From the IMG/VR virus record IMGVR_UViG_2529292921_000023: a DNA stretch of 18,296 nt. The stretch is one strand, 5' to 3'. The DNA is from a virus. Lineage: Duplodnaviria > Heunggongvirae > Uroviricota > Caudoviricetes. Shown here piece by piece: positions 1,700 through 2,068 of the stretch (the stretch's first letter is position 1; every line of letters starts with the position of its first letter). Both the position numbers and the translations under genes were made by a program. Below the pieces are notes generated by a model, which did not search any database, had not been told where the DNA came from, and worked only from the letters and a program-made list of their open reading frames with translations.

Positions 1700-1883
1700 A
1701 AGCAACTCCATCTGGCAGGTGAAAATCATGTTTATTTATATATTTCAATTAATTGTAAACTGGTCTAATGACAGGGAGAAAAAAATATTGTACAGGTAAA
1801 AAGAGAAATAACTTTTAATTATCAATAAATTACCAAACATGCTGCCGCCGCCATGGAAATGCAAAAACTAGCCTTTTTCCGCG

Positions 1884-1895
1884 ACGCTCCCGCCC
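1884..1895 (-). other. cosN-like cohesive-end site of a lambda-type cos
   Basis: Minus-strand reads GGGTCCTTCCGGTGGGGTGGCCTGCCACG-GGGCGGGAGCGT-CGCGGAAAAAGG. Lambda (from memory) reads GGGTCCTTTCCGGTGATCCGACAGGTTACG-GGGCGGCGACCT-CGCGGGTTTTCG. Flanks and 9 of 12 cosN positions match; spacing to the Nu1-like start matches lambda. Confidence 0.5.
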
Positions 1896-2068
1896 CGTGG
1901 CAGGCCACCCCACCGGAAGGACCCGCCAAAATGAGAGTGATTATCACCATTGCTGATGAATAAATTGATGAAAATCATTGAAACGCCTTTCAGCAAGATA
2001 ACGGCGACGGTCGTTGTTGAACTCCGTAGCTCTGCTACTAAGGTTAAAAGCATGGCCATCTTTTGCCA

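Follow-up and report, generated by a model that had tools for sequence, protein, structure and literature searches.

Does the GC-rich segment between the lysis genes and the terminase genes of this prophage form a lambda-type cos site, at which bases would it be cut, and what has become of it in the copy at hand? The window, by which we mean the whole 18,296-nt stretch of DNA that was analysed, carries the segment on its minus strand, between the end of the lysis gene Rz at 2547 and the ATG of the small-terminase gene terS at 1699. We interpret positions 1700-1924 as the lambda-type cos of a cdtI/Tritos-type lambdoid prophage of Escherichia, with a probability of roughly 0.9. The site itself is already known and catalogued as the cos of a common Escherichia prophage type. 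Its central elements are the following:

1918-1924, minus strand: cosQ, GGGTCCT, the packaging-termination element, equivalent to lambda bp 48473-48479
1896-1917, minus strand: 22-bp spacer from cosQ to the top-strand nick, ending in the conserved ...CCACG
1884-1895, minus strand: cosN, the cohesive-end 12-mer GGGCGGGAGCGT, placed by the ends of the cdtI and Tritos records and by alignment with lambda
1863-1883, minus strand: conserved segment from +13 to +33, CGCGGAAAAAGGCTAGTTTTT, at the position of lambda I2 and opening with CGCGG as lambda does

Read on the minus strand, with slashes at the proposed nicks, positions 1879-1924 give GGGTCCTTCCGGTGGGGTGGCCTGCCACG / GGGCGGGAGCGT / CGCGG, as the initial annotation had quoted them; the wider reading is ...TCATTTTGGCGGGTCCTTCCGGTGGGGTGGCCTGCCACG GGGCGGGAGCGT CGCGGAAAAAGG... 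The first base of cosQ lies 29 nt upstream of +1. For lambda, the fetched record (NC_001416) reads GGGTCCTTTCCGGTGATCCGACAGGTTACG / GGGCGGCGACCT / CGCGG, with a right end of ...ACGGGTCCTTTCCGGTGATCCGACAGGTTACG and a left end of GGGCGGCGACCTCGCGGG..., and the lambda sequence given in the initial annotation proved to be correct. Alignment to the real lambda sequence had been named there as the way to refute the resemblance; when the alignment was run, the resemblance held. All seven bases of cosQ are shared, as are the flanks ACG and CGCGG on either side of cosN, the CG dinucleotides that flank the nicks, and bp 1-6 (GGGCGG), 10 and 12 of cosN itself, so that the lambda-like flanks claimed for the minus strand are confirmed. 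The cohesive-end 12-mers GGGCGGGAGCGT and GGGCGGCGACCT differ at bp 7, 8, 9 and 11, which makes four differences where three had been counted. The spacer measures 22 bp in the window and 23 bp in lambda.

The likeness extends to the overall layout of the site. Both cosN sequences have a partial two-fold symmetry, which in the window is centred between bp 6 and 7; in the 22-bp core at 1879-1900, 12 of 22 positions are rotationally symmetric, versus 10 of 22 in lambda. Both also place a GC-rich cosN beside an AT-rich cosB, and the GC content of the window accordingly reaches 72% at 1870-1929, the cosQ-cosN island, versus 18-30% at 1720-1840 on the cosB side. The window site thus has the cosQ, the left half of cosN with its CG flanks, the symmetry and the location of a lambda-type cos. 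By analogy with the role described for lambda I2 (PMC4669245), the segment at 1863-1883 may act as an I2 counterpart.

The individual motifs are short, and it could be argued that GC-rich intergenic DNA has come to resemble lambda cos by chance, with no role in packaging. We regard this as exceedingly improbable. The 18.3-kb window contains a single copy of the skeleton GGGTCCT-N20-CGGGGCGG-N6-CGCGG, and 200 dinucleotide-preserving shuffles yielded none, even when two mismatches were tolerated. Moreover, many phages have the site at the same place between Rz and terS, and phage records break at the proposed nick base.

These records were found by megablast against deposited phages and were then read directly. 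The cdtI record (AB285204 / NC_009514) ends at the base matching window position 1896, with ...GGTGGCCTGCCACG (...CCACG), and starts with GGGCGGGAGCGTCGCGG; the Tritos record (OV696610) starts at the base matching 1895 and has the same opening bases as cdtI. Since both breaks coincide with the proposed top-strand nick, the phage genomes are cut there in both records. The starts of the two records may themselves have been set by homology, and the Tritos paper gives no statement of how its record start was fixed (PMC9928086). Tritos is prophage 3 of E. coli LF82, for which virions, a plaque on a K-12 strain and TEM images have been described (PMC9928086). Both phages share cosQ, the spacer, the cosN 12-mer and the first 33 bp identically with the window, are 97-98% identical to it in cosB and terS, and have the same gene order (S-R-Rz, a KilA-C fragment, cos and a DUF1441 terS). 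Relative to both records, the window shows three single-base changes in cosB (+98, +140 and +167). A further difference is that terS and TerL are intact in cdtI and Tritos, which are inducible or plaque-forming, whereas terS of the window is cut by an IS100 element at +543.

From the homology in register with lambda, the family of the large terminase and the two independently deposited records, we place the predicted top-strand nick at 1896/1895 and the bottom-strand nick at 1884/1883, which would leave a 12-nt overhang. As a separate observation, the record of mEp460_4F5 (LR595868, 1-30) begins 5 nt before the predicted nick and, compared with mEp460, is 3 nt short within cosN. We suspect that the assembly went wrong at a physical end of the DNA; should that reading hold, it would indirectly support cutting at the site.

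The same site is widespread among related elements. HannyBb and PhiR40_1 carry the same 12-mer with its flanks, and the 22-bp spacer recurs in both of these phages and in cdtI, mEp460 and mEp213. A 21-mer across cosN is present in more than 120 IMG/VR contigs, a lower bound, and nearly all of the 116 IMG/VR loci compared for this 21-mer keep a constant distance from cosQ to the nick. Part of a 131-bp cos segment was found in 2174 of 5426 complete E. coli genomes (~40%), and nearly the whole segment in 109. No complete E. coli genome matched the window prophage from end to end. Among species-representative genomes, the exact variant was found in E. coli, in E. ruysiae and in two metagenome-assembled (MAG) contigs. 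The latter, one assigned to Veillonella parvula (L136) and one to Bacillota (L138), carry the exact Escherichia-type cosN 21-mer within genomes binned as Firmicutes; mis-binning of enterobacterial prophage contigs is the most likely reason. When the literature was searched for the exact 12-mer, the sole match was an unrelated paper on a mammalian promoter.

How unusual, then, is the 'variant' cosN of the window? The Feiss laboratory defined lambda-like phages by 12-nt 5' ends similar to those of lambda, and within this group bp 7-12 of cosN commonly vary, at 9 and 12 in N15 and at 8, 9 and 11 in Gifsy-1 (PMC4669245). [quoted passage not shown] The differences of the window at bp 7, 8, 9 and 11 fall in this right half and therefore fit the known tolerance of change. 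With natural variation in bp 7-12 documented (PMC4669245), the window cosN is not unusual; it adds a case to the documented pattern in which variation of lambda-like cosN is confined to bp 7-12.

For N15, Fels-1 and mEp213 we verified cosN directly from sequence. N15 (GGGCGGCGTCCG; differing from lambda at 9 and 12) and mEp213 (GGGCGGCGCGCT; differing at 9 and 10) both have a right half unlike that of the window. N15 also has a simple cosB, with terS at +89 (PMC9026076), while mEp213 shares with the window the 22-bp spacer and the ...CCTGCCACG flank. The mEp213 sequence equals the putative cos quoted in PMC12315714. Fels-1 (GGGCGGCAGCGG; 8, 9, 11 and 12 versus lambda) shows right-half changes of the window's kind. 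For Gifsy-1, the reported end is one substitution away from that of the window, which adds a C-to-G change at bp 7 (PMC4669245). Small terminases of the Gifsy-1/Fels-1 group belong to the DUF1441 family and are 35-39% identical to the window TerS. Fels-1 and Gifsy-2 have GGTACTC where Escherichia phages have the cosQ GGGTCCT. Gifsy-2 cosN was also tried as a comparison and dropped, as a guessed register left nine mismatches and no confident alignment.

Downstream of cosN, the window continues into the region that would be bound by the small terminase:

1700-1862, minus strand: AT-rich cosB equivalent, presumed to bind TerS, from +34 to +196, placed by composition and class divergence
1820-1832, plus strand: exact match to the IHF consensus WATCAANNNNTTR, a putative I1-like bend site at +64 to +76, found by consensus search

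The first 33 bp after the nick are common to the 116 IMG/VR loci with the cosN 21-mer, and from +34 onward these loci split into at least three sequence classes; the conserved segment from +13 to +33 occurs in all three classes bearing this cosN. The classes track the small-terminase sequences, which are only ~35% identical to one another. Such a split together with TerS type would follow if the sequence from +34 on were cosB, the specificity element. Exact matches to the IHF consensus numbered two in the window versus 1.0 expected, a count not above chance, so the argument for the bend site rests on its position and not on the count. Its TTGAT core is kept at the same place, +64 to +76, in the other two cosB classes. 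A repeat search in cosB gave AT-rich inverted repeats, none convincing as an R-type repeat, and the CCTGT motifs picked out by eye at +100 and +121 were discarded as too short to count. The cosB sequence of lambda is unrelated to that of the window. Since the window TerS has no detectable similarity to Nu1 and R repeats were not found, the mechanism at cosB is argued by analogy; on this footing, binding of IHF and of TerS at cosB appears plausible.

The terminase gene next to cosB is present as a fragment:

1353-1699, minus strand: 5' part of terS (DUF1441 / phrog_141), with ~116 of 175 codons left, assigned by Pfam, PHROG and homology

The fragment matches Pfam DUF1441 (PF07278; E = 1e-28) and phrog_141, 'terminase small subunit' (E = 9e-39), and shares 99% identity with the TerS proteins of Tritos, cdtI and HannyBb. 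Its start at +197, the ATG at 1699 with a GGAG 6 nt upstream, is used by PGAP and in the Tritos record; the cdtI annotation uses an alternative start at +185. Either position lies close to the nu1 start of lambda at +191, and the lambda-equivalent distance asserted in the initial annotation was borne out. The description of this start as 'Nu1-like' is apt for position and size and fails for the protein family. BLASTP of TerS against lambda Nu1 gave E = 4.6; both the window fragment and full-length cdtI TerS match DUF1441 only, whereas lambda Nu1 matches Phage_Nu1 (PF07471) only. A search of the PDB by sequence gave no relative of TerS. Full-length terS genes of 175 aa are encoded at 29 of the 41 IMG/VR loci of the same cosB class.

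TerL lies outside the window, beyond IS100, and its family was read from cdtI and from E. coli RM14723, the latter with the identical cos. Downstream of the identical 131 bp, RM14723 carries an undisrupted DUF1441 gene of 175 aa, which starts at +197, and then genes for a TerL of 699 aa and a portal protein. In these relatives, GpA_ATPase and GpA_nuclease domains make up TerL; the cdtI protein aligns to lambda gpA with 24% identity (E = 4e-22), and a gpA-family TerL is thus a trait that lambda shares with the relatives of the window prophage. TerL type predicts the type of DNA end, and inference from TerL type plus alignment has been published for mEp213 and LLS (PMC12315714). Taken with the anatomy of the site and the breaks in the cdtI and Tritos records, the gpA-family TerL of intact relatives with the identical cos supports the original reading of the site as lambda-type. 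The site also shows the lambda-type cosQ/cosN module in use with DUF1441 small terminases that have no detectable Nu1 similarity, a pairing that the annotations of Gifsy, Fels-1 and cdtI had already implied.

The same divergence of the terminase could be taken to mean that the site is a real cos cut with a geometry unlike lambda's, with shifted nicks or an overhang of a length other than 12 nt; a TerL this distant from gpA, a TerS without similarity to Nu1 and a cosQ-to-nick spacer 1 bp shorter than lambda's would all agree with that. We consider such a geometry distinctly improbable, as the nick-flanking CG dinucleotides, bp 1-6 and the symmetry centre are kept in the lambda register, and the breaks in two independent phage records fall precisely on the base equivalent to that of lambda. 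The gpA family is, in addition, the class that makes 5' cohesive ends (PMC12315714), and the TerL of N15 is divergent from gpA too, yet produces a 12-nt end and is interchangeable at cosN (PMC4669245). We therefore retain the lambda-like cut with 12-nt ends as the preferred reading.

Upstream of cos, the late genes of the prophage are arranged as follows:

2547-3723, minus strand: lysis cassette with holin (3723-3508), lysozyme (3508-3011) and Rz (3026-2547), matching Pfam Phage_holin_2_1, Phage_lysozyme and Phage_lysis
2163-2525, minus strand: KilA-type C-terminal (ORF11CD3) fragment between Rz and cos, matching Pfam ORF11CD3

The order of the lysis genes equals that of cdtI orf57-59. The equivalent of the KilA-type fragment is cdtI orf60, which is annotated with the remark 'start codon is not identified'. 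Many unrelated phages, among them HK620, Stx phages and Salmonella phages, have kilA-like genes whose 3' parts are 91-98% identical to the fragment, which marks a mosaic junction just upstream of cos. In the minus-strand reading, the remainder of the window follows the lambdoid order, with xis and int at the far end, then cI (10903-11670, plus strand) and cro, a DEAD-box helicase and a toprim primase. The antiterminator gene Q (6053-5223) comes next, and then the lysis genes, the KilA fragment, cos and terS.

This gene content bears on whether the site could belong to a PICI or another satellite that copies the cosQ and cosN of a helper to hijack its terminase. Such elements carry cosQ and cosN nearly identical to those of lambda-like helpers at the same spacing (PMC9026076), and in these respects they would look like the window. 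A PICI cos, however, is followed by an rpp gene and is without phage cosB (PMC9026076), whereas the gene after the window cos is 99% identical to the Tritos/cdtI TerS and is preceded by the same cosB. The DNA upstream of cos forms a complete lambdoid late and early region, with S, R, Rz, Q, primase, helicase, cro, cI, xis and int. We accordingly rejected a PICI origin on the combined grounds of phage TerS, phage cosB and lambdoid gene content, and hold a satellite cos to be very improbable. The segment is best read as the cos of the lambdoid prophage itself.

That prophage is damaged on the far side of cos:

1-1352, plus strand: partial IS100 (IS21 family; end of istA, then istB at 504-1286) inserted in terS, assigned by identity and Pfam

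The IS100 part is 99.8-100% identical to annotated E. coli IS100 and matches Pfam IstB_IS21 (E = 8e-112). Its terminal repeat ends at 1352 and the homology to terS stops at 1353 (genome position +543), which sets the junction at 1352/1353; the window ends inside IS100. An exact search of species-representative genomes gave no match to the IS100/terS junction. At the opposite end, the integrase is spread over two plus-strand ORFs in different frames, 17011-17391 (Arm-DNA-binding domain, 126 aa) and 17424-18296 (catalytic domain, 290 aa), which points to a frameshifted pseudogene and fits a prophage in decay. With terS split by IS100 after ~116 of 175 codons, the prophage would be unable to initiate its own packaging, and the cut terS together with the apparently frameshifted integrase marks the element as defective. 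As judged from these disruptions, the cos is intact and the prophage that bears it probably can no longer package its own DNA.

In an intact phage of this type, we would expect the DUF1441 small terminase to bind the AT-rich cosB, probably with the help of an IHF bend at +64 to +76, and to position the gpA-family large terminase on the partly symmetric cosN. Nicking of the top strand at 1896/1895 and of the bottom strand at 1884/1883 would then produce 12-nt 5' cohesive ends of the sequence GGGCGGGAGCGT, and packaging would run toward terS, that is, leftward in window coordinates. The cosQ element, 29 bp upstream, would serve the cutting of the downstream cos at termination. The site would set the packaging origin and the orientation of the prophage, and its value is mainly one of annotation.

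In the present copy, the site would be usable only in trans, by a co-resident phage of the same terminase specificity. A more specific proposal is that a co-resident phage of the Tritos/cdtI type, sharing the DUF1441 TerS and the cosB specificity, supplies the terminase that cuts the intact cos, and that the bp-7 change beside the symmetry centre and the divergent TerL mark a cosN group that lambda-type terminases cut poorly. We rate this combination as unlikely; if trans cutting did occur, the defective prophage and the adjacent chromosome could be packaged.

Some features of the window lie beside these questions. Scanning the window against Rfam and for tRNA genes gave no hits, and PADLOC found nothing among its unknown ORFs. 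A 71-aa ORF on the minus strand (1868-2083) spans the cos nick; its C-terminal half is encoded by the cosQ-cosN DNA and matches phrog_17397 (E = 2.7e-7). GenBank 'hypothetical proteins' have been annotated across cos in other phages too (mEp460_059, mEp213_073 and HannyBb CDS0088/89), and phrog_17397 is probably translated conserved cos DNA and not a gene. Antisense to the late operon, in the slot between Q and the holin gene, lies a 310-aa plus-strand ORF (4176-5108, with 5105-5347) that belongs to phrog_7003 (function unknown) and had no match in Pfam or PADLOC. The same slot holds stx2f in closely related prophages, and the ORF may be an uncharacterised moron.
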